Assembly (NCBI GenBank): GCA_905178155.1
Contig: CAJINV010000003.1
Location: 8,476,799-8,540,798 of the forward strand
Source: Amoebophrya sp. A120
Lineage: Eukaryota; Protista; Dinoflagellata
DNA length: 64,000 bases
Direction of reading: 5' to 3'
Shown: one piece after another, positions 9,896 to 51,285 of the stretch
Position numbering within the stretch: position 1 is the stretch's first letter
Layout of the letters: every line of letters starts with the position of its first letter
Position numbers and translations under genes: made by a program
Notes under the pieces: model-generated
The model's input: the letters and a program-made list of their open reading frames with translations, nothing else
Database searches by the model: none
Told to the model about the DNA's origin: nothing

Positions 9896-9899
9896 CTTT

Positions 9900-10718: not shown

Positions 10719-10799
10719 ACGAAATAACGATAAGAATTGTAATTAATGCGAGGGGGTGTGCAAGCAAAAGGAGTGTAGTTGTTTTTGCGCGATGGACAT

Positions 10800-11615
10800 C
10801 TAGTAGTTGTCACCGGCCCACCGCAATAGCAATTTTTCCTGTACTCGGGAATAAGCAGGCAGTTGTTGCTCGATTATGTTTCTTGCAGCGTAAAGAAGAT
10901 GGTCTTCCTGTTCCAGGAGCAATTGCAGGATGTGCAGCTCGTGGCTTGAAGTCAGATATTTTGCCGCGAGCGCACGCGCAGCGGACAAAAATAGCCACCT
11001 TTTATATTCGGACTCGAGAGTTGTTCTCCGGCAGCGGGAGCGGTCGGTGCGACGGTACACAGTGACCGGCGGCCCGAAGGATACTGGGTTTCCTGGTTCC
11101 TGGAGCTTCCGCGCCTTGTTGCTGAGAATTTTCCACCTGCTGGACGGGTGTTGTTCGTTCGCCGTGTCCAAGGAATATTTTCCCACCAAATATCCGCCAG
11201 GCCGAACCGGCTCGCAAAAATTGGGATATCTGCGGTTCGCCGTCCTGCTTTTGCGTTCTTCGTACAGTTCCGTGGAGATGTACTCTTGCAGGACCCGTAG
11301 CTGGTGGGTTAGCAAGTACAGCTGCCACACTGTGTGGTCTAATTCCTTTTCGGTTGTGAACCGATAGCGGCCCCGGCGGTTCTCCTCTAGCACCTGCTCA
11401 TACAAGTTCTGGCGCCGCCACAAATAATAATTGCGGAATAGCTGGACCTGCTGATATCGTTGGTGTACGTTTGAGCGCTTGCGCTCTAGTTTTGGACTAA
11501 ACCAACGCGCCCGACCCTTAAAATGTATCTGGTCGTCAGCGTATATTGACTCGTTGAATTCTGGAGCGAAATAAATCACCTCATCGAATCCATTGGTGAT
11601 GTTGTCGCGCCACAT
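10800..11615 (-). CDS. Accessory ORF A of retroelement, unknown function
   Basis: 271-aa ATG-initiated intronless R/Y-rich ORF between the PBS and gag, with TAGATG stop-start junctions at both ends. Confidence 0.65.
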   Translation of the reverse strand: MWRDNITNGFDEVIYFAPEFNESIYADDQIHFKGRARWFSPKLERKRSNVHQRYQQVQLFRNYYLWRRQNLYEQVLEENRRGRYRFTTEKELDHTVWQLYLLTHQLRVLQEYISTELYEERKSRTANRRYPNFCEPVRPGGYLVGKYSLDTANEQHPSSRWKILSNKARKLQEPGNPVSFGPPVTVYRRTDRSRCRRTTLESEYKRWLFLSAARALAAKYLTSSHELHILQLLLEQEDHLLYAARNIIEQQLPAYSRVQEKLLLRWAGDNY

Positions 11616-16090: not shown

Positions 16091-19000
16091 TCACAACTGA
16101 GCGAGGCATATCATGGCTGCGGATGTAGTCTTCCTGTGCTCAGCCGCGGTGACGGCAGCAGATTTTCGCGTTGCGCGAGAGGATTTCGTGGCCTCGCGTC
16201 GTTTTTCTCTTTCGCGCGCGAGCAGCTCTTCCGCAAACCGCAGGGTCTTGCCGAAGCGGTCGGGTGGGGTCAGTTTTGCGAGTGCCCGGCGGCACATCCT
16301 TTCGTCCCGCTCCTGTTCCCGTTCTACTTGCGTGACTAGGTGATCCACCAGATGGAGATCGATCAGTCCCTCGTCGTACTCCCCCCCGTCGACCCGAAAC
16401 TGAAACTTGCGCAGCCACCAGCAGAACTCCATGGTCTGCCGAAAGCTCCACGCGGCCACCGGCATCGCCCCACTTCTATTGCTAGCGTGACTACTAGTAA
16501 AACTTAAACTCGTAGTTCCTGCCGTAGTAGTACTGCTGTTCATCTTCTTGTTCCTTACCGTTGCCGAGCAACTGGTGCTAAAGCCGCCGCGCGGCTCGTT
16601 TGACACGACCTCCAGCTTCTCCAGCGCGCGGTGAAAGCTTTCGGCAGGTAGAAATCCGTGGGCGGCATTCTCCTCTCGGGTGAAGGCTTTACAGAGTCTC
16701 AGCACGCTGATTTTGCGGAGCCGGGTCATGTACAGCAGGCGCGTCAGCAAGCTGCGATACGGCTCGCAGACGATGCTGCCTTCATCCCTGTACTCGACGA
16801 CAATGTCGTCCTTGGTCCGGTGCTTCTGCGTCTTTGCTGGGACGACACTGGACGACAGGGAAGAACTGGGCGCTTGTTTCCCTTGCGAGGTGGACCCGTC
16901 CTCGACCTCGTTCAACAACACCCCCGCTGCTGTGTCGGCATCGTGCCACGGCCGCTTCAGGGCGGTTGGGAGCGGGAGGTAGTTCTTGTAGTCAGTCGAT
17001 GTTGCTTGTTTGATGTTGCCTTTGTTGTAGCTGCTGCTCATCCCAACAATAGTAGAGCCTGGATAATTGTTGTTTTCCTCCCGCTCGAAGGAATCTGATG
17101 GAAAAACGACGTCGACGAGCGCACTGTCGTAAGAACTCGACCATGTTGTCGGTGCTGGTGCTCCACCTGCGCCACCCCCACTAGTGGAAGAACTAGAACA
17201 GGCACCTCCGCTTGATGTTGTCGCCGCCTCCGCCTCGTCGACGCGGTAGTACAGTTTCTTTCGCACACAGTCGTCGTCTGGAGAGCTGTAGTGCAGATCT
17301 TGCGCCATCTGCGAGAGGGCAACGACTTCCACCTGGTCGCGGAAGGACCGCACCGGTGCTGCCCCATTGGGAATCTGGGTGTAGTAGCGCAGGGCCTTGC
17401 TGTTCCCCCACTGTTGCCCTGCCCACTGCCGTCGGCTCTCCAGGGTTTCGTCAACCGCGAGACAATCGAGGCATTCGGCCGGGCTGTCAAATGCAAATGT
17501 GTCTGGGTCTGGAACGATGCAAGTTTTGCCACGCAGGTTTTCCATGACCCATGAGGTCTGGAATGCGGGACCTCGCATGACAGAAGATTCTCTGAGGTCT
17601 CTAACTCTATCATGCCTACAACTCTGCATGAGAAACTTCCTCTCAACTCGGTGGAAAGTGGACAGCTTTTGGCACTTATGCAACACAGTCACAGATTTCT
17701 GTATGATTCAGATGTAGCATGACAAATCGCAAATGCAATCGTCCAGACCCAAACATATTTATTTGCATTCGATACGTGCGCCGGCGTCGCAATTCTTGCG
17801 TGCGCGTCCACGGAATCCGGTGGTCGTCGGTCTGCAGTTCTTCCAGAGCTACTCCCGCACAATTGCGGTATTCGGCCGAATATGCATCAAAAATAGTTAT
17901 CATGGATCTTGGTCGGGCAGAGCCAAAGGCAAAAGCGCTGCAGACGTCACGTCTGCTGCTGGTTGGGATAATTGCGGTCCATGTCTAGTTTTGATGAAGC
18001 TGGGGGATGGACTTGCCGAGTCTGTCAAGTAGAGCGGCCAGCGAAAGAACCTATACCCAGCTGCGTTTATACTCATTTATATTGTTTTTGCTGAGACAGA
18101 GACTGACATCGGATTGAAGTTGTCCAATGGATGCAGGATAGTTATTACAAGCTTCGGGTCTTGCTGGGACCGACCTCCTTCTTCATCTCGCGGAACCGCA
18201 TGCACGGAAGAGAGACCTTCGCATGCATCTCAGACTCCGAGCTAGCGCTCGTGGGTTACCTACATGATGTGCGCGCCAACCCTCTGCACTGTTCCAGGTC
18301 TAGATGTTGTGTTTTCAGTTGATACCCAAGTGGAGGGGTTCTGGAGAAGCAGCTGGCTTCGCGCGGCGACCGGCATTAGAGATGAACACTGGGCCTTTCC
18401 CTTTGCCAAAAAGATGGGATCTTGCCGATTCCACGAAGAATGCGACATACCTGGGGGGGCGTTATGGTTTTGGTCACAAATAACTTGCATATCGAGAAAA
18501 AAACTCCGAGGACCTCCTGAACCTGATCTTCGTAGTAGTTGCGTAAAGATTCATGCAGCGTTCATGAATGTTGACAGAGATCAGATAGGGCCTGATGCAT
18601 ACTTAGATGAAGAGCCCCTCAGGAGAAGTTTTGTGAAAACAAGCAGGACCCGTGCAGTGTCCAGAATAGTTTGCGGTGCCGTTCTCTTTGCACTTGTGCA
18701 GGATTTGCAGCTCTTTCTTGAGTGTGTTACGTGTTAGTTTGAACTTCTTTAGGAAAAGGAAATACACTAAAAGGGCGATAGAAGAATAAAGAAAAAGCGG
18801 CAGTTTGTTGAATTTCTAGTTCTAGGTAGTATCTTTATCTTGGCTGTGTAGCTGTACCTGGTAGGGGCGCAGTGGTGTACAGTCGGCGGCGATTTCCGTG
18901 TAAATTCGGTCTGTCGATGTCCCGTCCGCGGCCTTTCTTGATCAAGTGCGTGTACAGACTTCGCGGTTGCGCAGATATCGCTCCGTAATCGTACTGTGCC

Positions 19001-20463: not shown

Positions 20464-23400
20464 TTAGCGACTTTTTCTTGGAGCAGTACGCTTGAGTTTT
20501 TGGAAAGTGTAACTCGAATCTATTCTCCGTCTCGCAGTTCTCGCAGGGTTTTGCTTCTCATGCTTCTCCTTGTCGAAAGCCGTGCAATCGAGCCACTTCC
20601 TCAATACGTCGGTGCACTGAGATATGGAAGCGTCAGGGTTGAAATCGTCAAAGTTGAAATAATTTGTAACGCATAAAAAAATAATGTATGACCCGAGGCA
20701 CGTGTGTTCCAGAGCAGGCAAGTGAGACCGATTGCAAACCTGTTTGGGGTTAGAGCTCGAGCTGCTAAAGTAAAAGTAGCATGAGAAAATCAGTCTTCTT
20801 TGCCTAAGCAGCATGGCAAGCTGGATTTAAGGACCACCAAAGTTTGTCATGCACCGCTTAGAAATTAGGCTTAAAACTGGCATCCATTTTATGCATGACA
20901 AATCATTTCAACTTTGTCGATTTCAAACCTGACGCTTCCATATAAGATGGTGCTCGTTAACATCCACGAGAAGGACTGCTGGCCGCGGATGCTACCGCGG
21001 TACTGCAGGTAGACTTTCCGCGCGTGCGCGACGGCTGCTGGGGTAGTTGCGCTGCAACGCCGGGCGCCCCTCTTCAAAAAGCGGGGCTGCACAAGGCAAT
21101 TCAGAACGCGGAGCACAAGTCGTGGATCCGCACGATGGCGATGGGGAATTTCAGTCCACAATTGGGCAAGGAGCGCGACTTGCAAGTCTTCGCAAACGGC
21201 TGCGATTGAGAGGTCCTCCATTCCAGAAGTACTCGCCGTTTCACCAATGTGCGCGGAAGCGCTGCATTCGCCTTCCCCTTTCCTTCTGCGTGTAGCACTT
21301 TCTTGCGACGTGTTCAATGGGAATGGGGTAGAGGCAAAAGCATCGGAAAGCGTGTCCTCACAGGAGACTCCGACAGTGCACCACCCCGGGCTCGACAGCG
21401 ACAAGAGTCTTGGCTTCCTTGCGGTGTTTCCTTGCACAAATGGAACAGAGGAGCATACGCTTTCCGATGGCGCGGATGCTGTGCGACGCCGCTTTGCGAT
21501 TCTTAAGTGTGATTGTTGTTGTCCACCCGAAACTTCTGCCACGTTCTTGCACCTGAGAAGTCCCAACAAATCAGGGTGGACGGCTAGTCTTGTTTCGTCG
21601 ATGCAATCACTACGACTTCTTGTCATACCGGTAGTAGAAGTAGTTCCCCCACCAGCCTGTACAAGAGTTTCTGCTGTAGTAGAAGTCGAAGATGATGACG
21701 ATGAGCCTTCTGTTTCTACTGAAGGTGTTGAGTGGGGGCGGTGAACCGCACCTCCAACTACAGCTTCTTTCCCTTTGGGTTCGGTTACGTGCTGCGATGG
21801 TGCAGCAATATCTGGATCTGCAGGTTTGATTGGCTTGTTCCTTTGACTTCGAAGTAGACGCACCGGTGCGGCGATTGCAGCGACGAGGTGGATAAAGTAT
21901 TCCACGTCGAAGAATTGGAGCGCAGCTTGTCTGGCGTTACGACGTCTTGTAATCTACCGAATGCAAATATGTCTGGGTCTGGAACATTATGGCAAGATTT
22001 GCCGTGCGTGTATGGCATGATACATATGGTACCAGAAGCAGGCCCTGGCAGTTCGCCCTCCAGGTGGCATGACTTTCAGCTCTGCACTGCATGGCCACGA
22101 AGGGCTCCTCACCTGTAACGACTTGTTTATGCAAAAATGACGTTTATATAGTCTAAATTTCATTTTGTCATGCCTGCGGAAACGCAACACGAAGCCGCGC
22201 AAAATCAATTTTAACAAAACAAACCTGTGACCACGCTTGGGCTTGGCTGCGCATTTCAGCTGGCATCACAACTTTCTAATAGACCACGACATATTCGCAG
22301 AATGCATATCAATATCATCCGTTGCTGGTCGTGGACACTGGGCGGGGCCATCTCTCGGTCGCGTCCCCAGCTTGTGCGGCCCTCGTCATTCTCATTTGGG
22401 CGTGCGATAAGTTCGCTTTTAGGTCGTGGCTCTTCCGCCGGTTCTTCGGCCGCTGCAACTTGGTGGTCGTGCCCTTCGTCCTCGTCTTCAGGCGGAATCA
22501 CGACCCGAGCCCGAAGCAAGTCTTGGTATCCCGCGACGTAGGCCAGAAAGGGTTGGCCCGCTATTCTCAGTGCTGTAAGCAAGCAGGTACTGGCCTGGAC
22601 CGAGAAGGCCCCGGGAATGCAGTAGAGCATTCGGAAGTGAAAGCGCAGCGCATCAGCGGGCTGAAATCGACAGGCGCGGAGAATCCCCGCGAGAGTAATT
22701 GCGGACGGGTGCTTCACAAACGCAAACATGGCCAGGGGCGAGGGCAGGTGGCACCTCTGCAGAGCATGATCAGAGGTGTTCGGAGTCAGACCAACTATTG
22801 TTCCTGAAAGCGTGCCTTTATTGTGCCCGGGAGTCGAGAGCAGTTGTGCTCCAACTTCGCTGCTACACAAACGTACCTCCGACATATGATCTGCCAGAGG
22901 TGCATGTAGTGTATTTCCATCACAAACGCCATGTTGATCGACCTTCTGCTCGGTGAAGAAGTCCGCACTTATCTGCCCTGCCGGGGTGCTTGCCAACGGG
23001 CGACAGCACGCCAATAAAGTGTTCCACGTCGTATCATCTGGACTGAGATGAGATCCTGTGCAAAACAAGTATCGGACTTCTCTTGCAAAATAGAAGCAAA
23101 CAACTCAAACAAAATTTCATTCTCAGGACGGCGAGAGGAGCATTTTCCTCTGAAGAAGTAGTCACGATTTTTACTCATTATATCAGTCGCGCGGAGGTGC
23201 TGCTTCGCAGTGTCCTTCACGTCACACTTTTTTCTTTGTACATGTGCGATACTTGTGGAATATTTGCAATGCATAGGCGAAGCCCATCAATACCTGGACG
23301 TGCGCCGCCAGCTAGAAGGTCGGCGTACAACTGTTCCGCGGCGTCGTGCTTATCCGTAATTTGTGTGTGCGGGGCCTTCTTTATAGCCGCTAGTGCGATA

Positions 23401-27695: not shown

Positions 27696-28701
27696 CTACA
27701 GATTTGGTGCGGTTCCAAAGCTATTTAGTGCGTCGATAAGTTGCCATCGCGACAAATCTTGATCGCGTGAAGCGTGATAGTAATTCTGCATGACAAATCG
27801 CTTGAGCATGTAACGTCTGAGAATCCACCCATATTGGCGCACCAGCGACCAGTAACGTGAGGCGCGACGAAGAAAAGCGCGAACCCGGGGACGAATCCGT
27901 AAGGTGCGGCGAACTTGGGCCGCGGGTATGACAAAGGGAAGCAGGCCATGCTGGGCATCCAGAATTTCGTAGCCAATAAGCACTCGGGTGGCGGTATCAA
28001 ACGCATATTTGTCTGGGTCGTCTGGAAGGATGCAGATTTTTTCCATGCCTATTTATCTTTCGTGGCCCAGAAACAGAAGGTCTCGTCTGGCATGCAATTT
28101 CTAGCATTACAGTTTTTGAGAGGGCCCGTCGATGCCTAACCCGCATGGAAAATCGCCTGTTTTGTCGGTGACATCAACGAGCAACTTTTTCTGTCCTCTG
28201 TGCATGTTGGCAGATTTTTGTGTGTTGTGAAATGCGCATCACAAGTGCCACCTTACTTTCCTGAACCAGACATATTTGCAATGAATAGGCTGGTGCTGGC
28301 TGCTTGGTCGTGGCCTTTTCGCCACTATGAAAGTAGAGGATTTTTCGCGCTATCGTGCGTGACGCAGAGGCTGCCGCTGCTGGCAGCGAAGCTCCGACGC
28401 GGTGGGGCGCAGGCAACATAGGTAGGGTGGCGATGTCGTCGGTATCATAAACTTCGGCCACCACCACGCCGTACAGGAGTATAGCAGTTGTAACAGGTGG
28501 GAAGTTCTCAGAGGAAAAAACAGGAGCGATCGACCTCGTTCTGCACTTCTTCTTCTGAAAAATGCGCATGTTCGTGCACAAAGAAGAAGCAACTCTCTTA
28601 GAAGGTGGAAGCCGCATTTTTAGCTTCGGCAGCAGCACGAGAGATAGCGATAAAAAAAAGTGCGAAATGCAAACCAATAGTAATGATCGTGACAGCTCCA
28701 C
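27696..28701 (-). CDS. Hypothetical protein exons (frame uncertain)
   Basis: ORFs 28174-28701 and 27696-28046 join in frame when the IR element plus one flank is removed. Confidence 0.35.
27995..28287. mobile_element. IR introner copy d
   Basis: TATCAAACGCATATTTGTCTGGGTC ... GAACCAGACATATTTGCAATGAATA; flanks GGCGG/GGCTG. Confidence 0.8.
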
Positions 28702-29143
28702 CTGGTCCTGGAAGCTTCAAAACCTTCTCTGCGGTTCGTTTTCTACTTCACGTCGCTTGTCAAGCCTCTACCATGTCTGTGTATGCACTTGAAAAGATGA
28801 CCTCTGAACAACCTGAAGAAGAACAAGGAGCGTTCGCCTTTAACTAAATATAGACTACTACACGACCTACAAAGGAAAATAAAGCAATTCTTTTGCGAGG
28901 GTTCGAGGGTGCTAGCTTTTCCCATTCATTTCGTGAGTTCGTATTTGTCTTTTCTGTCGCTACAGAAGCTAGTACTTCCACCTGAAAACTTCCCACCAAG
29001 CCCTGGCGTAGGGGATTTTCGTCCCCGCATGCTGCCTCCTGCACCGGCTGCCGCGAAACCATATTCGTCGGACAGCAGCATTGGTTGACCAGGACGTAGC
29101 CGAACGCGCACCCAGTCTCCTACTTTCGGCTTCAAACGAGGCG

Positions 29144-30037
29144 TCACAGTCCTCTTCTGAAACCGCCGAGACGATAGCGGTAGAGCCGTTCGCGCGAAGC
29201 ACCTTCGCGGTTGAAGGGATCCGTCTCGTCCTCGGTGATTTCCGGGGCCATCTGCTGGTTAATCAGCTTGAGCCGCTTTTTCTTCTCCGAACTCGTTTTC
29301 GGGGGCTCGATCGGGTAGTTGTAGTTTTGGCTCGGGAAGTTCATGTTGTAGTTGAAGGTGAGCGCGATACCCGTTTCGGGATCTGCGAACTTGTTCAGCC
29401 ACTTGTTGGACGTGTGCTTCGTGAGCGGCTCGAGCATCAAGCTGCTTGGGCGCGGCGTGCTGTTGCCCAGACCAACGGCGCGGGACTTGTAGTTCTCCTT
29501 GCTGTTGTTACTGTTGCTCGTGTTACTATTGCTGGTCGACGGGGAGTCGCTGTTGTTGCCGCTGCCGGAGGAGTCGACCCCCGTGGTGGTTTCCTCCGCG
29601 CCCGGCCTGCGCAGCCACCAGTCGTCTTCCAGTTTGCCCAGCGCCTTCAGCAACAAGTCGTCGGTCACGGAGAGGCGCGCCTGCGGACGGGGAGTCTGCG
29701 GGCCAAACTGCAGCCCCTCACTCTTGTAACTCCGCTCGGACCGGCCGCTTGGCGTCTCAGCGCCACGACCAAAGGACGACGTTTTCGGGCCCAGAACCAA
29801 CTGTCCGGTAGCTTTATTGCCCGGGAGGTCCGCAGTAGAGGACGGCGTCGCAGCGTTCAAGCCGAGGGCTGCGCCAATCGGCGATGACATTTCCGCGATC
29901 AAGGCACGCAGCTTCGCCTTTTCGGCAGCTTCGCGCTCGCTCCGTAGCTTCATTATTTCCGCCTCTGCGCCTCTTCGACCAGGACGTAGCCGAACGCGCA
30001 CCCAGTCTCCTACTTTCGGCTTCAGGCGAGGCGTCAC
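29144..30037 (-). CDS. ORF fragment bracketed by the 62-bp repeats, possibly a gag-like N-terminal piece
   Basis: 297 codons open from one repeat to the other; short coiled coil plus S/N-rich tract; its start and stop codons fall at the repeat ends. Confidence 0.4.
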   Translation of the reverse strand: MTPRLKPKVGDWVRVRLRPGRRGAEAEIMKLRSEREAAEKAKLRALIAEMSSPIGAALGLNAATPSSTADLPGNKATGQLVLGPKTSSFGRGAETPSGRSERSYKSEGLQFGPQTPRPQARLSVTDDLLLKALGKLEDDWWLRRPGAEETTTGVDSSGSGNNSDSPSTSNSNTSNSNNSKENYKSRAVGLGNSTPRPSSLMLEPLTKHTSNKWLNKFADPETGIALTFNYNMNFPSQNYNYPIEPPKTSSEKKKRLKLINQQMAPEITEDETDPFNREGASRERLYRYRLGGFRRGL

Positions 30038-30300
30038 ATTAACGTCATACCGTGCGGGTTGTGATTTGAATTGTGACGTATTTGGGACGAATTTGGGACG
30101 GACGGAGTTTTGAAATTCTGGACGGGTCTCGTTTGCCTCCAGTAGAACCTAGGACCTAGCTACGAGGGGGCGCCAAGATAGATTGACTACAGGTTGTGTG
30201 TGTGCGTTTTTTACCTTGTAGTGCTGTGAGAAAATTGAAAATGAAGAAACTTTTTTTTAAATATGATTATTTCACATACCGCTACCCGCCACCTGGCATC

Positions 30301-30347
30301 CTGGATGTAAATCGGTCCCTTCGTACTGGATGTAAATCGGTCCCTTC
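30301..30347. repeat. Short tandem duplication
   Basis: CTGGATGTAAATCGGTCCCTTC twice, 25-bp period. Confidence 0.9.
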
Positions 30348-31003
30348 AGCCCGGCAAGAGGAGCAACACCAGCGGAGTTCGCGTTGCAATCCTCGATGGC
30401 AAGGCGTCGCGGCTGTTCATCCGGGCAGCGGCTGCGTCCCGTCCAACAATACACTTTCCGACTTCGCGCCGCGTCCTTCTCCGAAGAGCAGGAGGTGGGG
30501 GTCCGGGGCTTTCCGCTGGCCCCGAGAGAATCAAGTATTCAGGACGTGAAACATGTAGGAACCGATCAAAGGCCAATGCTTGCACTGCGATGGAATTTTC
30601 GTCCCTATAGAGTCTCGATTGCGTTCGTGAGTCGGGTGTCGCGCCTAGTTCTTGCAGGTTCCTGTGATGCACTATCAGCCCAATTTCAGAAAGTCTTTTG
30701 TTTTGTCTTGCATTCCCACCGATTGAGATGGGAGATATTAAAGAAGATGCACACCTACCACATAACATGATCTGCCCGGCCTGTTTATGTTTAGGCTCGT
30801 CATGACAAAAAACATCGCTGAGCGAAGCGCAGTGCAAACGGCTTGGCCTTTGCACCGTCTCCCTACATTCATTTTCCATTCCATAAGGTTGATCCATGAC
30901 GGTGGCACCAGCTGCTTCTCCACACAGACGCACGCGGTGCACATCAGCCATCACGTATCGGAGTCGCTCGGGCCGATCATGCGTTCCCTCAAAGCTACAG
31001 CTC

Positions 31004-31268
31004 TATCTATGCGTTGCAAATGTGTCTGGGTCTAATGTTGGAGCTTGTAAATATGGCATTACATTTGGCTTCATTCTATGAAATCTGCACTGCATGACCA
31101 ACGAAAGTCATAGCCTCTCCTGTCATACAAAAACGCAGTTTGTCATGCGGAACGCGTGTGAGAAATCATTTTGCAGAATTGTCATGCTTTCCTGCATGCG
31201 GAAGCGCTTTTTTTCTTTTCAACATGCAAGTTATAAATTTTCAGACCCAGACACATTTGCATTGGATA
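31004..31268. mobile_element. IR introner copy e
   Basis: Perfect 19-bp IR TGCAAATGTGTCTGGGTCT / AGACCCAGACACATTTGCA, TATC...GATA ends and a perfect AGCTC duplication. Removing 270 nt joins minus-strand VIDAS to CSFEGTHDRPERLRYV. Confidence 0.9.
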
Positions 31269-33916
31269 AGCTCGCATCGATGACAACATCGACAGCGAAC
31301 AGCTTGCGCGGAACAGGGGGGCGCGCAGATTTCCAATCTAAAAACAGGCCTTGCGTCGCGGCGTGATTTTTTTTCATTCCCACTTCCACACAAAAAGAAG
31401 TTCTATCATTCGAAGAAAAGTTTGCACGTATACCGGCCACATTGAGGCGCGGTTTTTCTGTGCAAGTGCTAATTTCTAATTAGGAGTACTAGCGGCGCAC
31501 TGTGAGTGTTTACTCTGTAGAGGTGAAAACGCATACTAGGTATCCGCACCCACTCGAGCGAACTCCTGCTTCAACAAATATGCTACCAGACAGCACGTTC
31601 CACGTGGTGCGGCCCGCTGAGTACAGTTACCGTCCTTGGTGGGTGGACAAAAACTATTATCCGACTGCTTGCTTCCGACTCCGAGCTATTTTCGGAGTGT
31701 GTCTTCTGCGAACGAGGACGAAACAAGTGCCGCGCTATGTACTGAGAAGCTACTTAGAGGGTAAATAAATTCACTGTAGCTAAGCCGCCCGGTCGCAGTC
31801 GTGCGTCGTCGTGCATTGCTTGTTGCAAATCTATGCTTCTACTCCATGCGACAGCGTTCGCCTTTCCTGATAGCGACTGCCTTTTGATGCAAGTGCAGCC
31901 TAATCCTTAGAAGCAAAACTATGACAGGGTCCGCGCGTGTCTACCAGTCTGAAACGCGAAAAGAAAGCTGCAGCCCGCTAGTACGCTTTCACCTTGTAAA
32001 TTTACGCAGTAGCGGGATCGTTTTCTTTTGCTAAGAATCCACCATGCTAGCAGCAGGACTCCCTGTACTGATAAAGCAGAGCCCAACAGGCAATGGATTT
32101 GAAAAAGATGGGGAGAACGCTTCATGGCAAGAGGCACCCTCCCCCATCATAAAGTTGGGAGATGGAGTTGGGCGCGACAGAAGAATTGTCGGCCCTAACA
32201 CCGTTCAAGTTCATTGCTAGGAAAATGAACAGTCTCCTACTTTCGGCTTCAAACGAGGCGTCACAATCATGAGAGCTGCGAGGACCTGTGGAAAAAATCG
32301 AGATATTATTTCCACGCAAAAGCGATAGCGAACAACTTGGATGCATTGATTACGCAGTTCACTCTTGAGGACTTCAACGCCACACTTCACAACAAGGATT
32401 TTTGCTCATTTCATCTATTATTGCCACGCAACGAGTTTCAAAGATAACGAATTAAAAGCCGGAACGACGGTAAAGCGACGGTAAACACTTTCAGTATTGT
32501 GGCTCGTCTCCCGTCATGTCACAAAACGTATTTTTGATGTGTTCACATGTAGACGCGGATCTGCCGATAGCACAGTGGGACTAGGAACAATGACAAAACA
32601 AGTATCGCTCTGGGGAAAAGAACTACAAAGACGTAACTCTGTTGAGTGTGGTGTTGAGAATAAATGACTGCTGAAATATAGGCTCCCTGGTAGTTGAGGT
32701 CCTGGGGTAGAAAAGAGGCACAGTATGTTTTGAGTATCCATGAGAGAACAAGTGTGGGACATAAGTGATAGAAAGCTAAAGTTGAACAAACAGGAGCGCA
32801 TTCTACTCAAAGTGTCTGTCGTATAAGCTGAGTGTGTAGGATTTGAAGTCGCGAAGCAGAAACGACTCACGCACGCATGGTGGCGGGAGCAGTGTGTGTA
32901 TTCATCATCATCTCAAAATCGCTTTTAGTGAGCTACTTCAACAACCAATCGTCACAATCGTGGAAAACCAATTATCAAAAAACTGCATTTTCATCCATTC
33001 TGTTCGCCCAAAAACAAAATAGGATGTCGCATGCCAGTCAGAGGTCGTGAGTATTAGTACCAAGTAAAGTAGATGAATGAAATACGTAGTAGTAACTGGA
33101 AGGCTCGTGAAAAGCACGAAGAAAAAAATGCACAGAAGAACCTCAAAAAAATCGGTAACAGAGGAAAGTCCGTCGCATGTGGTCACCGTCGTGAGAACTC
33201 GAACGTGAATACAACCTACCGTGGAGAAGTCACTGTCAGTATGCAACTGGAGTCAAAGTGGAACCACTTGCATGTGCAGAAGCAAAACAGTACGAACATA
33301 ATAACATCTTCCAACCCTCTGCTTGTAACTCTTCGTGTTTTCACCGCAATTCGTCATTTTTACAACTGAAAACAGGAACCACAGCGCGGCCAAAGAAGTA
33401 CGATCGCTTCTTTCTCCCAGAAGCTTCACATTGGTAGTCTTGATCTCTCGATTTTCAACCACTGAGAATTGGGTGTGAAGACTACCAAGAACTAGCCCGG
33501 TAATATAATTTTCAGCAAAAGTACAACATTTCCGTAGATTCATTGTCCTATATTGAAGTACTAATTTTTCTACGGTTAAAGTAGTTTTGTGTGATAATTT
33601 TCGGCTAGTCTCAGTTGAATCAAGTACGAAGTGTTTGAGTTGTTTTTCTTGTTCTAGCAGACATTCAGGTGCATAACCTCTATACGACAAAACTATCCTA
33701 GATACGGTTTCAGTTTTTTAACTTTTCGCATAGTCTATTTACTCTATAGCACTAGCTTTATCGCTATTCCCATGTAAGATTTTATTCAGTTTTATTGATT
33801 CGATATTTTGCATAGGATTTAGTAGAATTCTGTGTAGATCTTTTATCTTTTGCGCATCAGAGATTTGCATAATTTAGGATTCAGAAAAATGAACGAAGTT
33901 TTTCCTACGTGTGGGA

Positions 33917-35475
33917 CAGTCTCCTACTTTCGGCTTCAAACGCGGCGTCACTTAACTCTAGACTGCGCGGGCTGTAATTCTAATTACAACCAATTTCAAA
34001 CCAATTTCAAAATTCCAGCATTTTCATGCTGTGGCAACCCCGCGGGCCTCCGCGGTGTGCGATTTTTCATTGCATACAGCCACACAAACTTGACTGCAAC
34101 GGGAATGCCAAAAGCCCGCCAAAGAGCTGGCGGGCCTAACAACGGGCCGCCCGCGGCCATGAATGTCGGGGCCCGCGCGTCTGGTGTGGCCTTTCCACAC
34201 GGAGCCCCACACCCGGAGCGGCGCCGGCCTTTGCAACATGTGACAGTACGCGATGGGCCCGAGCGATTTACACTGGCGGAGCAAACCTGCCGCACGCAGG
34301 GGCGCCACAATCAAATAATGGGCGCCGGGCGCCGGGCTGCCGCCCCGGTTTGGCAACCCCATACAGGCATAGACACTGCGCCATGGGCAGCGAGACACGG
34401 GGCGCCCACGCCCACCCCCGATCGGCACGGGCGATACGAATCGGGCAGGCGCGGCACCTCTCCCAAGAATACCGGCGCCGGCAGGTAGTGCCTGCGCCAA
34501 GGGCCCGGCGGCGCGGCTCGTTGGCAATCAGTGGGCTGCGGGGCTTCGCGGCAATCGGCATCGACACGGGCGAAGAGCTGCACGCCCCTGCCCGATGGAC
34601 CGCTTCGCACACCGGTACGCGAGGCCCCACCGAATTGCCGACGGCTGCCCTTCGGAAATTCCGAAGCCCATCAATGCCCTTCGCTGATTTCAAAACGCCA
34701 TCGGCCATCTCGCTCGCTTTCAAAATCCCATCAAGCCTCCTGCGCAATTTCAAAACGTCATCAGGCATTTTGGCCAATTTCAAAACGTCATCAAGCATTT
34801 TGGCCAATTTCAAAACGTCATCAAGCATTTTGGCCAATTTCAAAACGTCATCAAGCATTTTGGCCAATTTCCAAACGTCATCAAGCATTTTGGCCAATTT
34901 CAAAACGTCATCAAGACGATATTCAAAATGCCGTCAGAATTCCGTCAGATTCCGTCAGAATTCCGTCAGAACCAAGCTACCCATCGGGGAGCGGAATTCT
35001 GACAGAATTCTGATGGCGTTTTGAAATGCCTTGATGATATTATTTGGAATGTGCCCAAGCCCTATTTTTCTTTCTTTGCCCAGCGGGTGTCGCCGCCCGA
35101 TGGAGTTTACTGAACCAGGGGCCCACCCCCTCCGGCTTTCCTCCTTGTCCTGTCGGGCGTCGCAAATTTGCTCCGAAGAGCGGCCACGCGCTGCAGGAAG
35201 GATGCCGCATGCTCCAGGCGGCCCTTCGCCTTCACGGCGCGACGTTGACTACGTAGCGCAGAGCCGCGAGGGAGACTATCCCCGCCGCGGCCCCGTCTGC
35301 GTCCTCTTCCCGTCCGTCTCAGGTAGCCTCGCGACCTACGAGCAGGCGCGCGGACCACTGCAACACCAAGACGAGGAATTTTCCCCGGCAAGTCGCCCGC
35401 GCGCTGGTTCTTCAGAGCCCATGCCGAAGCCCGCTGCGCTTGTCTCCTACTTTCGGCTTCAAACGCGGCGTTACA
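33917..35475. mobile_element. Non-coding module A bounded by the 35-bp motif
   Basis: 30-bp tandem TGGCCAATTTCAAAACGTCATCAAGCATTT (~34681-34915), then central inverted repeat 34921-35027. Confidence 0.65.
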
Positions 35476-37041
35476 TATAGAGACGAAAAAGGTGGTCTTC
35501 AGCATTGTTCTTATCCCTAAAGAAATTCGCAGCATACCATCGGGATTTGCCCTTTTTTTTGCGCCAACGCAGGCGCTGCAGTTTTTATGGTCGCGTCTGC
35601 GTAGGAGTGCTGTTGCCTTCCCTGGCGGGTTTTTTCACGCGGCCCAGGCGTCTTTCTAGAGGAACCAACAGGCACGCCAGCACCCCGACGAGCCTAGACA
35701 TAGACTAAAGTGGCCCCCCATTGCGCAGGCCCACGGGCACTCACAGCACGCCCAACAGGCGCAGGCGGGCATCTTTTTCGCGGCCCCCGGCCCTACGTAC
35801 TCGCGACCCAAAAAAGGCCGCAAGCCGGCTCGTGCGGGCTTGGTACGCAGGCCCCTCGAGTCCTCTTGGAACTCTTCAAACGCGCCTCAATCTCTCACCC
35901 ACCGCCCCAATCACTCACCGCTGGCACCGCTTCCGCGATAATGGTGGACGCACTGGCAGAAGACCCTGAAAGCTTCCCGCCGGGTACTCGTTTAAACACT
36001 TCGGGAAGATAGATAAGAACACCTACTGCAACGACCTGGAATTAATGTTTTGGCATGCAGCAGACCCCACGAAACACAATTCGCCACGCCGCTAACGAGC
36101 CGACACGGAATGAAAGAGAAGGGCACTGAAAGACCCGTGGATATTGGCGCGCGCGGCAGCGCGCGCCAAAAAATGTACAACCTAGCCCAGAGACTCTGTT
36201 GTAATGTAGAAGATGGCATCAGATTGGACCCCAAATTGATCCAACCAATTTCAAACGGAATCCGAATTCCATCCGTTTTTCATCCGAATCCAATTCCATA
36301 TTAGGGAAATCGAATTCGGATGGAAATCGGATGGAATTCGGATGCAATTCGGATTCAGTTCGAAATTGGTGGGGCCCCTCCAGGAAGCAACGGATTTGGT
36401 TTGAAATTGAAAAGGAGGCCGCGGATTCAGTTTGAATTCGCGGATTCAGTTTGAATTCGCGGATTCGGTTTGAATTCGCGGATTCGCTTTGAAATTGAAT
36501 GCGGGGTCCGTCTCGTGCTACATGTCAGGGCGCATCGCCTTGACATGTGGCGAAAGCTGGAGCCAGCCGCCATCCCCTGAGAACCCCAAAGCGTTCTGCC
36601 CTCTGCCTCGGCACACAGTTGATGGTTGGGCCCCGCCCTCTGCAGCCCATGCCAATCTTAAGCATCGCAGCATGTCCAACCGCACAACGCCACTTGCCAC
36701 CAGCTCACAAAAAACGAACGGAACAACAAGGCCGTGGAAATGCAATTGCGGGCACACATTTCCCCCCCAGCCCCCCGCTCGCGCCCCGGGAGCCGCCGGG
36801 GACTTCGCGTCTCGTCACCGGTGCGTTCCATGGGAACATCTGGCCCGCCTAGGGGGCAAGGCGAGGCGGCGCACCAGTCAACGTGCCTGCAGCGTGCCAT
36901 CAACAGACGAAGCGGGCTCCTTTGACCCTCTGAAGCCGCCCGCTCCCGTGTTGCCGCCCGAGCCATTTTGGCCGGGTTGGTGTCATACCTGGGCGAGCTC
37001 CGAAAATGCAACTCCAACGTAGATCCCCTGTATCCCTCAGA
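35476..37041. mobile_element. Non-coding module D between motif copies
   Basis: Central inverted repeat ~36241-36372 (CATCCGAAT / ATTCGGATG); 19-bp tandem GCGGATTCAGTTTGAATTC x~4 (36421-36500). Confidence 0.55.
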
Positions 37042-38146
37042 CAGTCTCCTACTTTCGGCTTCAAACGCGGCGTCACATTAACTCTAGACCGCTCGGAATG
37101 TAATCGTGATTCAAACGGAATTCAAACTGAATTCAAAAAGTTGGCACTTTCAAAAAAACGCCGGGAAATGGGGCGAACGCGCTTTGGTTCGACCGGCGGC
37201 CGAAGTTTGTTATAATGCCTTAACTTGCGAACCTTCAAACCCGGCTCGGCGCCAGGGGGGGCGCTGCCGGTGTAATAAGAGAAGACCCTGCCCAGCCACG
37301 GAAAAATGCCGGGAACCGTCGGGGGCCGGCGCATGCGGTTAGGAGCATGGCTGGCCTCGGTGTCGGGGTCGCGGCTTGGCCCGGCGAGTGCTCAAGCAAG
37401 TCAGCCTGTGCATATTGCGTGTGACGCTAGTGGACAAAATGCCGCCAGGGGCGAGGCCATCCCCGGCCGCGATTCCCAATGCGATCAGCCACCTAAGATC
37501 GCCCAGGTTGGTCTCGGTAGGTGAAGTCGACTGGAGGCACAACTCTGGTGGCCCGGACCACAAAATCCCATCCCCCACCAATTCAAAATCCATCCGAATT
37601 CTGTCAGAATCCGTCCGAATCAAGAAGCCAAGTAGGGGACGAAATTCGGACGGAATTCCGACAGAATTCGGATGAGTTTTGAATTTGCCCCGATGGCCCC
37701 GATGGAGTTTGAATTGGGGCCGATCGTCCGGATGGGTTTTGAATTGGGGCCGGTCGTCCGGATGGAGTTTGAATTGGGGCCGGTCGATCGGATGGAGTTT
37801 GAAATTGAGATCCACTCCCCGATGAACTTTAGAATTGTTGCGCCGATCCCAAATTAGCGCCGCAAACAAGCGCAGCACCCTTCTGCGCCCGTGCGGGCCA
37901 GTTGTAGCGTTCCTGCCTGAAGTGCCAAAGCCAATAATAGCGCCGGCCGCGGGAATGACTAGACCGCCACCCGTGTCAGACAGGCGCTACACAATAGTGG
38001 CGCGAAATTTTAAGCCACGACAGAGCGCAGTCGCCCTTCGCAGGCGATGCGGGCGTATGCCGGAAAGTGAATCAGAGCGCATCGCTCTTGGCCCTCGGTC
38101 ATCATTCAGCAACACTGCTACTTTCGGCTTCAGACGAGGCGTTACA
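37042..38146. mobile_element. Non-coding module C bounded by the motif
   Basis: First ~100 bp align with module A; central inverted repeat ~37580-37685; 30-bp tandem GATGGAGTTTGAATTGGGGCCGATCGTCCG x~5 (37671-37807). Confidence 0.65.
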
Positions 38147-40317
38147 GTCCTGATCTTGGAAATCACAGCCCGGACCATCTTCCTAATCCGTTTGTCGCTG
38201 ATCCGGCCGCTCAGTTTATTTCCTAATCGTAATCCTAGCTCTGTTGTAGTAGATGAAGGAGTAATATGCAGATGATCAGGCCGCGGACCGAGCGCTGAAG
38301 ACGGGGCGGTCGTTCCTCGCCTGCCTGGTACGTACTTTCGCGGATTCGAGAAACTCAACTTCCTGAGAAACCCGGGGGCGCTTACTCCAGCAGGCGGACC
38401 ACGGGGCGCTATGATCCGTGAGGTGGAAGAGGAAGGAGCTTCCCGCTGGGACTGACGACGAAACGAGCTCGAACTTGGTGGGCTTTGACTCCTCGTTAGT
38501 TTCTTGCTTCGTCTCGTTGGAGCCGGCGTGCTGGTGTTCACTACGGAGATATTATTCCCATCTAGTACTTTATTGTCTCGGGCAAGAACTCCGCACCAGC
38601 TGCGGATGTTTGCGGCGTGTGAAGAAGCTGAGGCCGCCAGTGAAGGTGTAGGAAATGACACTTTTGAAGAACTACTTCCATGAGATGGTGGAGACAAATA
38701 AAACGAAGACGATCCATGCTCCGCTGATGTTGATGTTCCGAGTACGTTGCTTGCAGAACAATTCTTGTAGATACTACTTTGGCCGGACGCCGTCGGCGAA
38801 ACGCTGCGGTCCACCGTCCCCGGCGACCAGCAATTTGGTCCAACGTCCCCGACGAACCTGGGGTCGTATTGGTGCAGGTGGGAGTGTCGTTTTCGCGGTA
38901 ACAGTGGATGTCTTGCGGGAAGAAAAGAAGTGGATCTTTGTCCACGTGGTCTCTCCCTGCTGTTCCGGATTTCCAGAAGCTCGTCGTATTACTTCTAGAA
39001 GCAGAGGGCCCCGAAAGATCCGGCTGCTCCCCCGGAATCCGGTCCTCGTCGCGCAATGAAGGCCTCGCTCTCCTCCACGCTCCAGCGAGGTGCGATCCTA
39101 CCACGGCACAGGGGTCGTGCAGCACACAGAAAAAATAGAAAAGCCCCGCTGGGAAGACGGTAGGGTAAGTTCTCATCACCCGCAGTAACCCGCTCGTCTC
39201 GTTGTAGTGGTAGCACTGGGACTCGCGTAGGCGTCTGCTGCATGATGATCGAGACTGTAGCTGCATCGTTGTTCGTTGTTTTCTTACGTCCATTCGGGAG
39301 AGCGAAGGATCGAGAATACCACCAGCAAAGAGTAACAGATCGGTCAAACAAAGGCGATTAAACGGCTTGGATCTTCTCGTTTCAGGGAGCTGGTTGCTGA
39401 GGACAGTCCTTATCGTAATTTGAGTTCCTAGATGATCAACATGAAAAATTGCGCAGTCTGGAGCCGGCTAAACCTAAATTGGGAATCAGAAAGAGAACTT
39501 CAACTCTCGGGGTCGGGGCCGCTAGGAGAGACCGCTAAATAAACATGGAGAAAGTGGGGTTTGGATAAGAAGTTCGGATTCCAGGAAGTGGAGTCGGTAC
39601 AGAAACCAAACTACTGCACCGAATATTCATCTTCATAATCAGACATATTTATACATATATGCAAGAGAACCAAGCATGATCATGATGATGATGTTCAGGA
39701 TCGAAGTCTTCAAATCAGCCTCACGATTTTTTACGCCACAGTTTATCACATATGCCACTCGTCGCTTGCCGCTGCTGCTGTGCAGTAGAAATTGAAACAA
39801 GTATTTGCTTATGCTTAGAGTCATTCTCATTGAACCACAAGCGGAGCGAATACCAGTACTACATACATGCATACAAACATAATCAGCTTCGCTGAATCTG
39901 AGGGATGGTGTTGCTGGGCACGCTCTCCAGGAGGTTTTTTGTGCTCACCTGGATTGGAACCTCGCCCCAGGAAAGCGACATTCTCATCAAGAGCGATGTA
40001 CTGGCAAGCAAGATGAGCTTAAAAATCTTAAATAATAGCGAGGCGGCCTCCCCCTCCGCATCTGCAATTTTCCGTCGCGTCAAATGACGCGAGAGGTGGG
40101 GATCTAACGGGTCCAGGAGGGGATCCGCGACTCCATTCGGAGTCGTCGAGGAACGCTTGCAGTGCCCGGACCGAGCCCCCGCCCTATGTCCCCGATTGCT
40201 GCGCCAAGCACTATTCGCTCCGGGCTTCGGGTACGGGTTAATGGGGTCTGCCACAAAATTATGACTGGCGACGGCTACGAGTACGACCACCCAACCTGCC
40301 GTGACAGCAGTGGGCAT
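38147..40317 (-). CDS. Ser/Arg-rich hypothetical protein, multi-exon; frame runs into the motif at 38146
   Basis: ORFs 39883-40317 (hydrophobic N-terminus), 38562-39347 and 37987-38814; exon structure not resolved. Confidence 0.4.
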
Positions 40318-48300: not shown

Positions 48301-49939
48301 AAAGCACTTTCCGATAAGCGTGGAACACTGAGGCTCGACGAAAAACTCGCAGATGTAGCCGGCTTCGGAGCTTGCGTTCCCGGCTAACGGCTTGGCTGTC
48401 ACAACAGGCATCAGGGGAGCCTTTTCCTCGTGTTCTTGTGCGGTTCGCGCTTTGTCCGTCACATCCTCTTTTTCCTTCCGGTCAGCCAACTGCTGCTTGC
48501 TCGGGTACTTGTTACTCAGCACCACCATCGAGATCCACAAAAACAGGGCCCCCACGACACAATTCACGAAGCCGACAACCAGAAACCCAGGGTCGAAAAT
48601 TGAAAACTTGCAGTGCCTGAGAAGAAGTTCTTCTGTTTGTTTATAATTATTTTCATCATCGCGGCTCATCTAAGCAGCTCCGGCATGCGCAGATTTATAA
48701 CTCGGGGGCTTGGAGAAAAGCAACTTGAATGATAGGGCTGAGTTTGAGTAGAAGAATGATTTCATCACAAGGAAGCCAACGAACTAGGTTGAGTTTCCGG
48801 CAAATTTTCTTTCGGCGTGAATGTTAAGACTACGACTCGATAGAATAAGTGCGTATTTGTAACTGCATATACGAGTTCGCGATGGTATCGGAATCCAGGA
48901 GAATGCCGGTTTCCGGAATGGCTTTTCCTTTGATCTTGTACATCAGTTCGGTGCATTGTTGAATCCGGTCCCGACTTTCATTCAAGTAAGAAAGGACTGT
49001 GAGGTTGGGTGGCGATCCAATCAGGGTGAGTAGGCCGCCCAGTGAGGTTGCGTACGCAAGGGGCAGAAAGAAATTCTTCGGGTCAAACCCCACTTGGTCC
49101 GCAGCCACCACGGCAAGCGGCATCGCCATGCTGCACACCGGTCCGTTGGCGCAGACGCCAGATAGCAGCATCACCGGCACCAACAGCCGCAGGATCATGC
49201 CCCAGTAGGTTTTGGGCGCACCAACAATCGGCGACAGCAGCCTCTCCAGGACACGAGTTTCGTTGAAAGCTGCCGAGATCACGAAGAGCGATCCAAACAG
49301 AATCGGGGCCTGCTTGCCCAGGCCACGGAAGATATCCTCGGACGTGATGATGCCCAGCTCGCGGAACGCCAGTCCCAGAAAAATCAGAAGGGCGTCCGAG
49401 GGTTTGCCCTCTACGGAAAGGACGATCAGAAGCGCAATCATCGCAAACACCCACACAAAATCGTTGTCCTGCGGACCGAAAACGTTTTTCAATTTCTGCT
49501 CGTCCTCCTTCTTCTGTGCGGCTGGTGTGGCCGTACTGCGCACTGCCTGCGCCAACCGATTACATTCCGCCACCAATTCGGTTTTGGACAAGTCAGGCAG
49601 GTCGTTATTTTCGAACTTCTTCAGTCGCGCGTTCACCTTCGCCACATAGTACCCAGCGTCGTCATCCTTCTCAAGTTCGTCGCGACAAATTCGCGTCTCG
49701 TAAGCCGCCACATTAACAAACTTCAGCGATTTCTCGACCACCGGCTGTTCATCGCAGAGGGTAAGTCCCAGGATGAGCCCTACAACGCACGCGAGCCGGC
49801 CCCAGGTGAAAATTTTACGAAACAGCACATCAGTGAAGGTCAAGTGTGGCAACACCGTGGCACCAAGATCGGGCATGGACTCCGAGTCCGAGCCTGTGTC
49901 TTGGTCCGCCACAACTTCCAACCCTTTGCTCGGAGGCAT
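42333..49939 (-). CDS. SLC13/CitMHS-superfamily anion transporter (SLT/SAC1-like with long TrkA-C-type loop), multi-exon
   Basis: LSGVCANGPVCSMAMP, PLAYATSLGGLLTLIGSPPNL, YICEFFVEPQCSTLIGK, LVKPVPGTKPPR, AEALEKSGAVRLI and C-terminal GASACFCTPFGTSCNMYVQVPGGYAFGDYVKNG appear in the expected order. Confidence 0.85.
44133..44456. mobile_element. IR introner copy f (transporter intron)
   Basis: TATACACTGCAAAAT...GGCTCTGGA / TCCAGATC...CATCTGCGATGCATA; flanks CTGCG/CCGCG. Removing 329 nt gives FAFADATAEALEKSG. Confidence 0.85.
44703..45161. mobile_element. IR introner copy g (transporter intron)
   Basis: TATCAAGCTTGGAAATTTGTCTGAGTCT ... AGACCCAGACACGTTTG...TA; flanks ACGGG/CCGGG. Removing 464 nt gives PGTKPPRSVTTMDQSRGYF. 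Confidence 0.85.
47198..48213 (+). mobile_element. GC-rich non-autonomous element, Helitron-like ends, with AGAGGGT/ACCCTCT fold-back array
   Basis: AGAGG(G)T repeats 47224-47475 switch to ACCCTCT repeats 47488-47640. The 3' hairpin CCCCGGCG/CGCCGGGG (48184-48204) is followed by CTGG|T; the 5' end is TTTATATAT rather than canonical TC. Confidence 0.5.
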
Positions 49940-51285
49940 GATTGTGTCTCGGCCTTGGACAATCTTTTGGTCTTAATCTTGTGTGCTTGTTTCTCGTCTG
50001 GCACAATCCTCCAATAAATGAAGGTCGTGGCTTCCTCCTATGTGTTTTATCAGTCTCGTACTAATACTTCTTCTCCTGCTTCCGGCGTCCGGTCCTGTGC
50101 TCTGCTGCAAAAATTACAAACGAATGCAAGAACAGGCGAGGCGAACTACTCACACTAGTCTGTCAGCTCTTTTGCTTGTTCGTGAATAGAAAGACCTGAA
50201 ACGGATCAAGGAGAGTCCCGTGGGGTGGTGGAGGTACAATGTCCGGCACGTGGACTTGCTTTCCGTCTATCTTTATACTTGAGTGAATTACAACGCTACG
50301 CACTACACCACGCAGATCGGCAGAAAACTGTGAGTGCCTCGCCTACGGCTGCAGAATCCCACTCACCCGTAGCTGTGGCAAAAAAAAGAAACTGGAACAT
50401 CACCCAATATTTTACTAAATCAATAAAAGGAAAAAAAGAAGAGTTATAGCTTCAGGCATAAAACGAGCATGGTGGGCGCGCGACAAAGAACACCCACACA
50501 AAGCGGGCAAGCGCTGCAGCTGCTGCCGGCGCTTCACTACATCTACGCCGCTCGTTGTCGTCTCGGTCCAGGGTTTCGTTCAAACAATGAATTCGGATAA
50601 TATCCACCACAGTGAATGCAAAAGAAACAAGATCAACGCAGGTCGACTCCTAAACTCCTACGTCGGTCGGAAAATATACGCGTGAACTATTGGCGATTTA
50701 CCGCCCTGGACAGATCTTATCTTGATCTTGGTTATTTTCAGTTGTAGTTGTTATTTTTACAAAATTTTGTCGTTGTTCTTGAAAAACCGCAAGAGAAATG
50801 ATCACACACACACAGAGGATTCTCCGCTTCTAAAAAAAAAAAACTCATGGAACAACCCAAAAAGAGACAAGCCAATGTAGTTAGACGAATCATCAGCACC
50901 ATAAAAAGACTGAACCTGCAGAGGGTCTTTCACATCAGTTCAGTGTTCATCGAGAAGCTCATTCGAGGTACTATGTCGAACAACACTTCCAGCCTTGATG
51001 AATATGAGAACGGAGGCGGTCACGGATCCCTTGCAATAAGACATGATTTTGTTCTATATGCTAAGTGGTGATCGTGATTTTCGCCGATGACATTGACAAT
51101 GAAAGCCACGGCAGGAATACTCATGGGATGTTGTCTTGCTTCCACCAGTGCTGTCAAGGTTGGCTATGCACTCGCGAATCATCCTATTCCTACCCTAGAT
51201 ACCAACGTAGAGGGCGGAGCTACAAAGACAATGCTTATCTTATTTCGTGTGAACCGAAAATTAATGGCGCCTGCTTAAGCTTAGT

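Follow-up and report, generated by a model that had tools for sequence, protein, structure and literature searches.

Layout of the block and coding nature of its motif

The window analysed here is a stretch of 64,000 nucleotides from the dinoflagellate Amoebophrya sp. A120 (contig CAJINV010000003.1 of assembly GCA_905178155.1, positions 8,476,799 to 8,540,798), and the feature under study is a block at positions 29087-38146 of the window, in which seven copies of a short motif alternate with six longer segments (Table 1). The original prediction, made from the letters of the window, described seven co-oriented copies of one structured motif. The copies are real: the 15-nt core of the motif has seven exact matches on the same strand (at 29120, 30010, 32237, 33924, 35447, 37049 and 38118) where 0.15 are expected, and none of 100 shuffles reaches seven. 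No weaker copy is found elsewhere in the 64-kb window, the next-best match to the 34-bp unit having 13 mismatches. The motif is not significantly structured, however, with seven folds no better than shuffles (z of -0.3 to -1.9), and the site has no dyad signal.

The motif copies are direct repeats that border every segment, so that the six segments stand in tandem, each separated from the next by a target duplication, as do arrays of the R1, R2, Utopia and CRE type. The right end of the motif is sharp, as had been proposed, and all six segments abut the same motif position, with the last motif base missing in one case. Read on the minus strand from this end, copies 2 to 7 follow the sequence of the left flank for 62, 36, 36, 34, 36 and 29 bases. 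The left end was thus correctly described as spanning 29-62 bp, but it is not evenly ragged, because the lengths are modal, with four of six at 34-36 bp and three at exactly 36 bp. The segments measure 828, 2191, 1651, 1490, 1566 and 1040 bp, in agreement with the predicted spacing of 0.8-2.2 kb. They differ in character (GC content 0.41-0.61), but the claim that they are all unrelated fails, since segments 2, 4, 5 and 6 share family sequence.

On the minus strand all seven copies encode the peptide VTPRLKPKV, and in no other frame do they all read alike. This frame matches both a spliced gene at the left of the block and a 333-codon open frame at the right. Splicing was read from contigs assembled from runs X1, X3 and X7, and statements about these contigs refer to the 24 of 2018 pieces, 15 of 35 joints and 18 of 237 loose ends that were listed; summed depth is not a copy number, so depth-based figures are rough throughout. 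Run X3, which by our guess is RNA, skips four intervals that are kept in X1 (joints 27585/27834, 27989/28288, 28475/29012 and 31003/31270). Across the three joints at the left only one of six frames is open, on the minus strand, for ~207 codons running through copy 1; a plus-strand gene was ruled out by stops in all three plus frames across these joints. When the block is removed in silico and the remainder is spliced at the RNA joints, a single open frame of 451 codons results. The public gene model P0003 has exons B and C in this frame and omits exon A. The four sites that vary among the copies are all synonymous (p ~0.007 for three transitions and one transversion placed at random), and the two different continuations that follow the motif both encode RTVTPRLKPKV. 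Two of the six pairs of variable sites show all four combinations, and the C variant goes with the related segments 4, 5 and 6.

On the basis of the RNA joints and the reading-frame tests, the motif belongs to a coding exon of the host, and the left and right flanks are likely one split gene or exon. Since it is part of an exon, the motif is a duplicated target or a target-derived arm; of the predicted att-like site or repeatedly used linker, site-specific accretion at a reused sequence survives and the free linker does not. Because the motif is coding and in frame with both flanks, the block is best read as six insertions at one site in a host exon. The target has a coding frame and single-copy flanks and is not a multicopy RNA gene; an RNA-gene target was rejected after Rfam gave no match. 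As for the host protein, Pfam and PDB returned nothing, the Atlas gave leads only, and the AlphaFold model has a pLDDT (predicted local distance difference test) of 37. The exon A piece has no homologue among 34 candidates, and a search with exon B matched only the gene model of this locus. By eye, we take the VTPRLKPKV peptide to resemble the first strand of a KOW/SH3-type barrel, with no confirmation from Pfam or PDB.

Table 1. Features of the block and its flanks, with positions in the window.
Feature	Position	Strand	Description
Host exon C	27834-27989	-	P0003 joins B to C in the same frame
Host exon B	28288-28475	-	Same frame as annotated protein P0003
Host exon A, containing the motif	29012-29148	-	Frame open over three RNA-supported joints; joint 28475/29012 in X3
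Copy 1 of the target	29087-29148	-	Continuous with downstream half of host gene
Segment 1a	29149-29207	-	59-bp piece; first 5 bases equal first 5 of right flank; X1 record 3 begins at 29208
Segment 1b	29208-29966	-	759-bp copy of part of resident gene P0002 (aa 452-704), sense orientation
Segment 1, far junction	29967-29976	-	8-nt near-duplication; shifted frame reads VEEA as in P0002
Copy 2	29977-30038	-	62 bp
Segment 2	30039-32229		TTAAC-family end plus ~2.1 kb at single-copy depth; transcribed and spliced in X3
Introner inside segment 2	31004-31269		26-bp inverted ends; 266 bp skipped in X3; very high X1 depth
Copy 3	32230-32265	-	36 bp
Segment 3	32266-33916		AT-rich, GC 0.41; one diverged second copy with substitutions and indels
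Copy 4	33917-33951	-	36-bp type, final A absent
Segment 4	33952-35441		TTAAC-family end; 30-bp tandem array 34745-34915; central palindrome 34922-35025; multi-copy
Copy 5	35442-35475	-	34 bp
Segment 5	35476-37041		Composite: high-copy left part (depth 570-1760) plus family-type right part, palindrome 36241-36373
Copy 6	37042-37077	-	36 bp
Segment 6	37078-38117		TTAAC-family member; palindrome 37580-37685; multi-copy
Copy 7	38118-38146	-	29 bp; continuous with upstream half of host gene
Open frame, 333 codons (37990-38988), single-copy	38147-38988	-	Enters copy 7 in the VTPRLKPKV frame; likely upstream part of split gene

Contents of the six segments and read support for their junctions

Copies elsewhere could be found for several of the segments, as the original prediction had suggested: segment 1 was traced to P0002, and further copies of segments 3-6 occur in read contigs. 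P0002 is a separate gene model of 1288 aa on the same contig. The translation of segment 1b is identical to it at 251 of 253 residues, and the copied 759 bp of the source contain no intron. One X1 contig (record 3, depth 73.7) covers exactly the interval of segment 1b; four of the five variant sites listed for the segment are third codon positions, and the bases that flank the segment are identical at 33 of 33 positions. At the far junction, the reading of VEEA in a shifted frame makes a microhomology of 4 nt likely from the sequence. Segment 1 is thus a patchwork with the marks of synthesis, namely three parts, sense orientation, an 8-nt near-duplication and the likely microhomology. At both 29759 and 29776, three different bases are found in the window, X1 and X3, with yet another difference in P0002 at aa 256; possible causes are a copy number above two, mixing of alleles or polishing error.

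Segments 2, 4 and 6 have a common left end that starts with TTAAC, in which 45, 40 and 54 of 75 positions are identical in the pairwise comparisons (0 of 1000 shuffles in each case). At 53-72% identity, these ends are far less conserved than the motif. The claim that three copies continue into a shared extension therefore holds for these three segments, but the exact TTAACTCTAGAC extension is present in two copies only, the third being a diverged version. The right ends of the segments are unrelated (the best of 15 pairs has 29 of 75 positions identical, which is matched by 10 of 1000 shuffles), and no terminal inverted repeats (TIRs) were seen, in that none of the six left ends has a significant inverted match in the last 300 bp of its own segment. 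Overall, an end is shared by three of the six segments, and poly(A) is found in none. The GC-rich hairpin modules that had been proposed are borne out in segments 4, 5 and 6, which have in common a palindrome of ~105 bp (71-73% alike) that folds at z of -8 to -11 relative to base shuffles. These three segments lie at roughly 3-6 times single-copy depth, with the left part of segment 5 far higher.

One X1 contig (depth 128.7, ~3 times single-copy) begins exactly at 33952, the first base of TTAAC in segment 4, which indicates that this boundary is an element end common to other copies. At the other side, 38117 is where further copies of segment 6 part from the window sequence, given the 30-base overlap of records 7 and 8. 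In a single contig (depth 105), 37150 is linked to 38120 across opposite strands without any ambiguous base. Judged from this one contig, those further copies likely close with an inverted version of the first 73 bases (37078-37150) that is absent here; such an inverted copy fits both the 30-base overlap and the zero ambiguity. The 6-mer ACTTTC occurs at both breakpoints of this opposite-strand joint (37146-37151 and 38120-38125), by chance or through the mechanism. Segment 3 starts with 56 bp (32266-32321) that contain a small hairpin and echo the 59-bp leader of segment 1. Record 13 of X3 matches segment 3 from 32322 on, and its first 819 letters lie elsewhere.

The introner predicted inside segment 2 is confirmed by X3, whose contigs read through copies 2, 4 and 7 and, within the block, skip only the interval 31004-31269. 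The family to which it belongs is very abundant (summed X1 depth >10,000), with members at 27990-28287, 31004-31269, 17487-17534, 21960-22003 and 63056-63089, two of which are shown spliced in X3. The non-canonical inverted-repeat introns of the window fit the introns published for Amoebophrya (PMC7789003).

Because X1 is perhaps the source data of the assembly, X3 may be the sole second sample. Both flanks and segment 2 are covered at a depth of 42-46 by long X1 contigs without differences. Full bridges exist for copy 4 (X3 record 13), copy 5 (X7 record 22) and copy 7 (X1 record 8 and X3 record 14), while copy 2 is covered by the overlapping records 11, 18 and 4. These bridging or overlapping contigs show 0-3 differences or gaps across their aligned length. 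Among the contigs listed, copies 1 and 3 are covered in part, none bridges copy 6, and none spans the whole block. No excised circle or empty site appears among the listed joints, although contigs built from 31-mers cannot resolve most such junctions. Base 38088 is missing in contigs of X1 and X7 and is possibly a one-base assembly error. Two loose ends of X3 were also seen: that at 29270 is apparently a match of <30 bases and was set aside, and that at 39053 has no partner within the window.

Proposed stacked insertions and competing explanations

The explanation we favour, tentatively and at somewhat below an even chance, is repeated target-primed insertion by a sequence-specific enzyme acting in trans, by analogy with the tandem arrays of R1 or Utopia. 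The target would be one split gene, with an intact VTPRLKPKVGDW exon when uninserted, and six pieces would have been inserted one after another at one base position of a likely single host exon. The actor would be a sequence-specific nuclease with a polymerase, probably a reverse transcriptase (RT), encoded elsewhere; it would nick the site, use the freed end as a primer to copy a foreign template, and rejoin ~34-36 bp further on. In the sense of the gene, each piece would have its 3' end at the fixed nick, and its far end would be closed by a second cut or by microhomology. Each event would regenerate the target downstream, so that the next insert would land beside the previous one, with segment 6 the oldest and segment 1 the newest; the latter placing is suggested by the near-identity of its cargo to the source and by its identical flanking bases. 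The usual passengers would be the non-autonomous TTAAC-ended elements (segments 2, 4 and 6), and segments 1, 3 and 5 may be template-switch patchworks or bystanders. The weakest step of the model would account for the synonymous mosaic by assuming that each passenger carried in the first ~22 bases of its copy, picked up at a donor site in a gene homologue that had diverged.

Several features argue for this explanation. Three family members that are so diverged at their ends nevertheless share one fixed junction. The X1 contig that starts at 33952, the modal duplication length, the single 451-codon frame left when the block is removed and the synthesis-type marks of segment 1 point the same way. 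Compared with its other copies, segment 6 seems to lack part of its far end. In the sense of the gene, the 3' junction is fixed, most duplications measure 34-36 bp, far ends are, where visible, truncated or closed by microhomology, and captured coding DNA is in the sense orientation; together these make up the geometry of target-primed copying.

A number of results weigh against it. With all four combinations present at two of six site pairs and all four sites synonymous, plain target duplication cannot give the variants, and no homologous donor target was seen (the left flank is at single-copy depth, and exon A has no homologue among the 34 candidates). The split gene itself meets with difficulties: the short side of joint 28475/29012 is 28 bases, the right-hand 333-codon frame has no match among 1.84 billion representative sequences, and a codon-usage model, which is too weak to decide, gives it no clear coding signal. 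Segments 1, 3 and 5 have neither poly(A) nor a shared 3' tail. Segment 2 retains an introner that is spliced from RNA, and must therefore have arrived from DNA or from unspliced RNA, unless the introner came later. TTAA-ended, inverted-repeat-like elements are normally moved by DNA transposases and not by RT. Among 94 open reading frames (ORFs) of the window that were scanned against profiles (all those of at least 90 aa in the block and its flanks, and of at least 150 aa elsewhere), none belongs to an RT, recombinase, transposase or nuclease family, in line with the earlier statement that the block encodes no recombinase. Finally, known site-specific retroelements target multicopy RNA genes, unlike the insertions described here (PMC4640811).

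The synonymous variants bear most directly on att-type accretion, which we consider unlikely but deserving of real weight. Here the segments would have arrived as circles, each bearing a 34-36-bp arm of its own that derived from a host-gene homologue, and crossover inside the invariant 15-bp core by a trans-acting tyrosine or serine recombinase would have stacked the elements like tandem genomic islands. Variants that violate the four-gamete test are directly explained in this way, and better than by the target-primed model; the association of the C variant with segments 4, 5 and 6, the near-constant arm length, and a 15-mer that is invariant in seven of seven co-oriented copies also fit. Other copies of segment 6, however, branch at 38117, where at least one contig (depth 105) appears to enter the inverted left end and not the motif, and segment 1 is a patchwork with marks of slippage. 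The site is without a dyad or fold signal, no recombinase is present among the 94 ORFs, and the literature passages searched assign no tyrosine recombinase to Amoebophrya.

Host repair draws support from the microhomology and near-duplication at segment 1. In this improbable alternative, recurrent breaks (for example, from one-ended attack by a TTAAC-family transposase) would be filled by polymerase-theta-like or break-induced synthesis that pastes in templated DNA, and the break end would be re-copied with no dedicated integrase. The composite nature of segments 3 and 5, the unspliced introner in segment 2 and the origin of cargo from the same contig are consistent with such a process, and one precise end, variable duplications and carried-over donor flank are described for Replitron-1 (PMC10288648). 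Nevertheless, three of the duplications are exactly 36 bp and one is 34 bp, all six events fall at one base, and the synonymous variants are left unexplained. Repair outcomes are usually less regular than such constant duplications at one base.

It is quite doubtful that the motif instead marks the conserved end of elements from one family arranged head to tail, or that the block is a decayed array of tandem paralogues hit at the same site. The shared RTVTPRLKPKV of the two continuations is what paralogues would show, conservation is much higher in the motif than in the TTAAC ends next to it, and P0003 omits exon A; but identical 36-bp remnants would not come from random deletion three times over, both flanks are at single-copy depth, and the motif adjoins four unrelated kinds of sequence in a frame that matches both flanking ORFs. 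An assembly artefact, with repeats joined through a shared word, would account for the lack of a listed contig across the block or copy 6, but is very improbable given how few differences or gaps there are in the contigs from two samples that bridge copies 4, 5 and 7 or overlap across copy 2, and given that the copies differ among themselves at synonymous sites.

Related systems, other features of the window and significance

Several described systems resemble the array, so the statement of the original prediction that no named element class fits is too strong with respect to layout (R1, Utopia and casposon arrays); with respect to membership it holds, in that no named family passes. Tandem genomic islands and integrative and conjugative elements at att sites are likewise separated by target-derived blocks of identity with variant bases; they are bacterial, both of their ends are native, and an integrase is usually nearby. 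By analogy, the block appears to work like the R1, Utopia, casposon and Replitron systems, with membership established for none of them.

The R1 elements of Drosophila 28S genes form tandem arrays with non-autonomous R2/R1 SIDE elements, have a 14-bp duplication, and make template jumps to other RNAs (PMC3414825). As here, several inserts are placed in tandem at one site, split by the target duplication and interspersed with non-autonomous passengers. In the present block, however, the duplication is 29-62 bp (mode 36) rather than 14, and the target is an exon of a single-copy protein gene; the passengers are mixed (TTAA-ended elements and a gene fragment), the duplicates differ at synonymous sites, and no RT is found in the window. 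Utopia is a non-LTR (long terminal repeat) element with a restriction-like endonuclease (RLE), whose arrays lie in the U2 genes of Phytophthora, a multicopy small nuclear RNA target, and whose copies encode RT and RLE (PMC4640811). It shares with the block the stacking of different families at one site, a target fragment after each 3' end, precise 3' and varied 5' boundaries, and a SAR (stramenopile-alveolate-rhizarian) host, whereas here Rfam finds nothing and no segment encodes an enzyme.

Tandem casposon and CRISPR (clustered regularly interspaced short palindromic repeat) arrays show site-specific integration, a long duplication that regenerates the target, and a polar, chronological order; casposons are prokaryotic, have Cas1 and two TIRs, and in A. 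boonei make a 15-bp duplication (PMC5137440). Neither Cas1 nor TIRs are seen here, and the duplication is 34-36 bp in four of six cases. Replitron-1 of Chlamydomonas, which has a dinucleotide target, 6-bp terminal direct repeats and an HUH gene, is similar in its orientation-specific insertion, one precise end, duplication of variable length and carried donor flank (PMC10288648). The donor flank that it carries is found at the fuzzy end, but in the present block such a flank would be at the sharp one, and, compared with Replitrons or Helitrons, the window has no HUH gene and the segments have no conserved ends on both sides. The introners of Amoebophrya are non-autonomous, inverted-repeat, intragenic elements with inverted repeats of 8-20 nt and direct repeats of 3-5 nt, which are dispersed and spliced out (PMC7789003, PMC12130899). 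They occur in the same host, with one nested in segment 2, but the six segments themselves are not spliced out in the X3 contigs listed.

None of the 94 ORFs encodes an RLE- or APE-type (apurinic/apyrimidinic) endonuclease, a Cas1-family integrase or an HUH Rep protein. A pattern scan with the motif gave no match in viral contigs or in metagenome contigs, and one with the TTAAC end gave none in viral contigs; its single metagenome match (19 nt) was taken as chance, because the flanks showed no similarity. In the main texts of the mostly open-access literature that was searched, we found no description of an array of this kind or of this locus for Amoebophrya.

Elsewhere in the window, positions 2906-11615 hold four tightly packed, intronless ORFs on the minus strand (1833, 562, 280 and 271 aa), ended by a near-perfect hairpin of 128 bp at 2906-3033. 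By eye, the 1833-aa ORF has what we take to be zinc-knuckle-like, D-S-G protease-like and dUTPase-like stretches, with no Pfam family above the cut-off. The cluster as a whole likewise has no Pfam family above the cut-off and no viral relative, and is possibly a truncated large mobile element. Positions 1-400 consist of nested palindromic and 88-bp tandem repeats that are unrelated to the family of the block. An exact 30-bp direct repeat (12459-12488 and 13797-13826) surrounds a plus-strand ORF of 269 aa, which itself holds an internal 100-bp repeat (12656-12756 and 12971-13071). The only clear Pfam match in the window is an exon at 48833-49972 of a transporter of the CitMHS/sodium-sulfate symporter type.

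At its most far-reaching, the array would be the work of an undescribed eukaryotic integrase, a proposal that we regard as speculative and distinctly unlikely. Such an enzyme would recognise a conserved coding motif, make a staggered cut of ~35 bp, and build up a polar, CRISPR-like, chronological array of captured DNA, made up of its own non-autonomous elements and fragments of host genes, from which new chimeric transcripts would arise. To our knowledge, eukaryotic insertions with sequence specificity are described mainly from multicopy RNA genes, with duplications of ~20 bp or less. That a single site in a single-copy protein exon should be used repeatedly, with duplications of ~35 bp and promiscuous cargo that reaches 2.2 kb, points to a targeting enzyme not yet characterised, and such an enzyme would make a candidate tool for genome writing. 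The motif and the TTAAC end provide exact handles for finding it. The lineage of Amoebophrya is marked by rapid protein evolution and by repeats that are mostly unclassified (PMC7789003), and the array shows a route to the capture of gene fragments and to chimeric transcripts.

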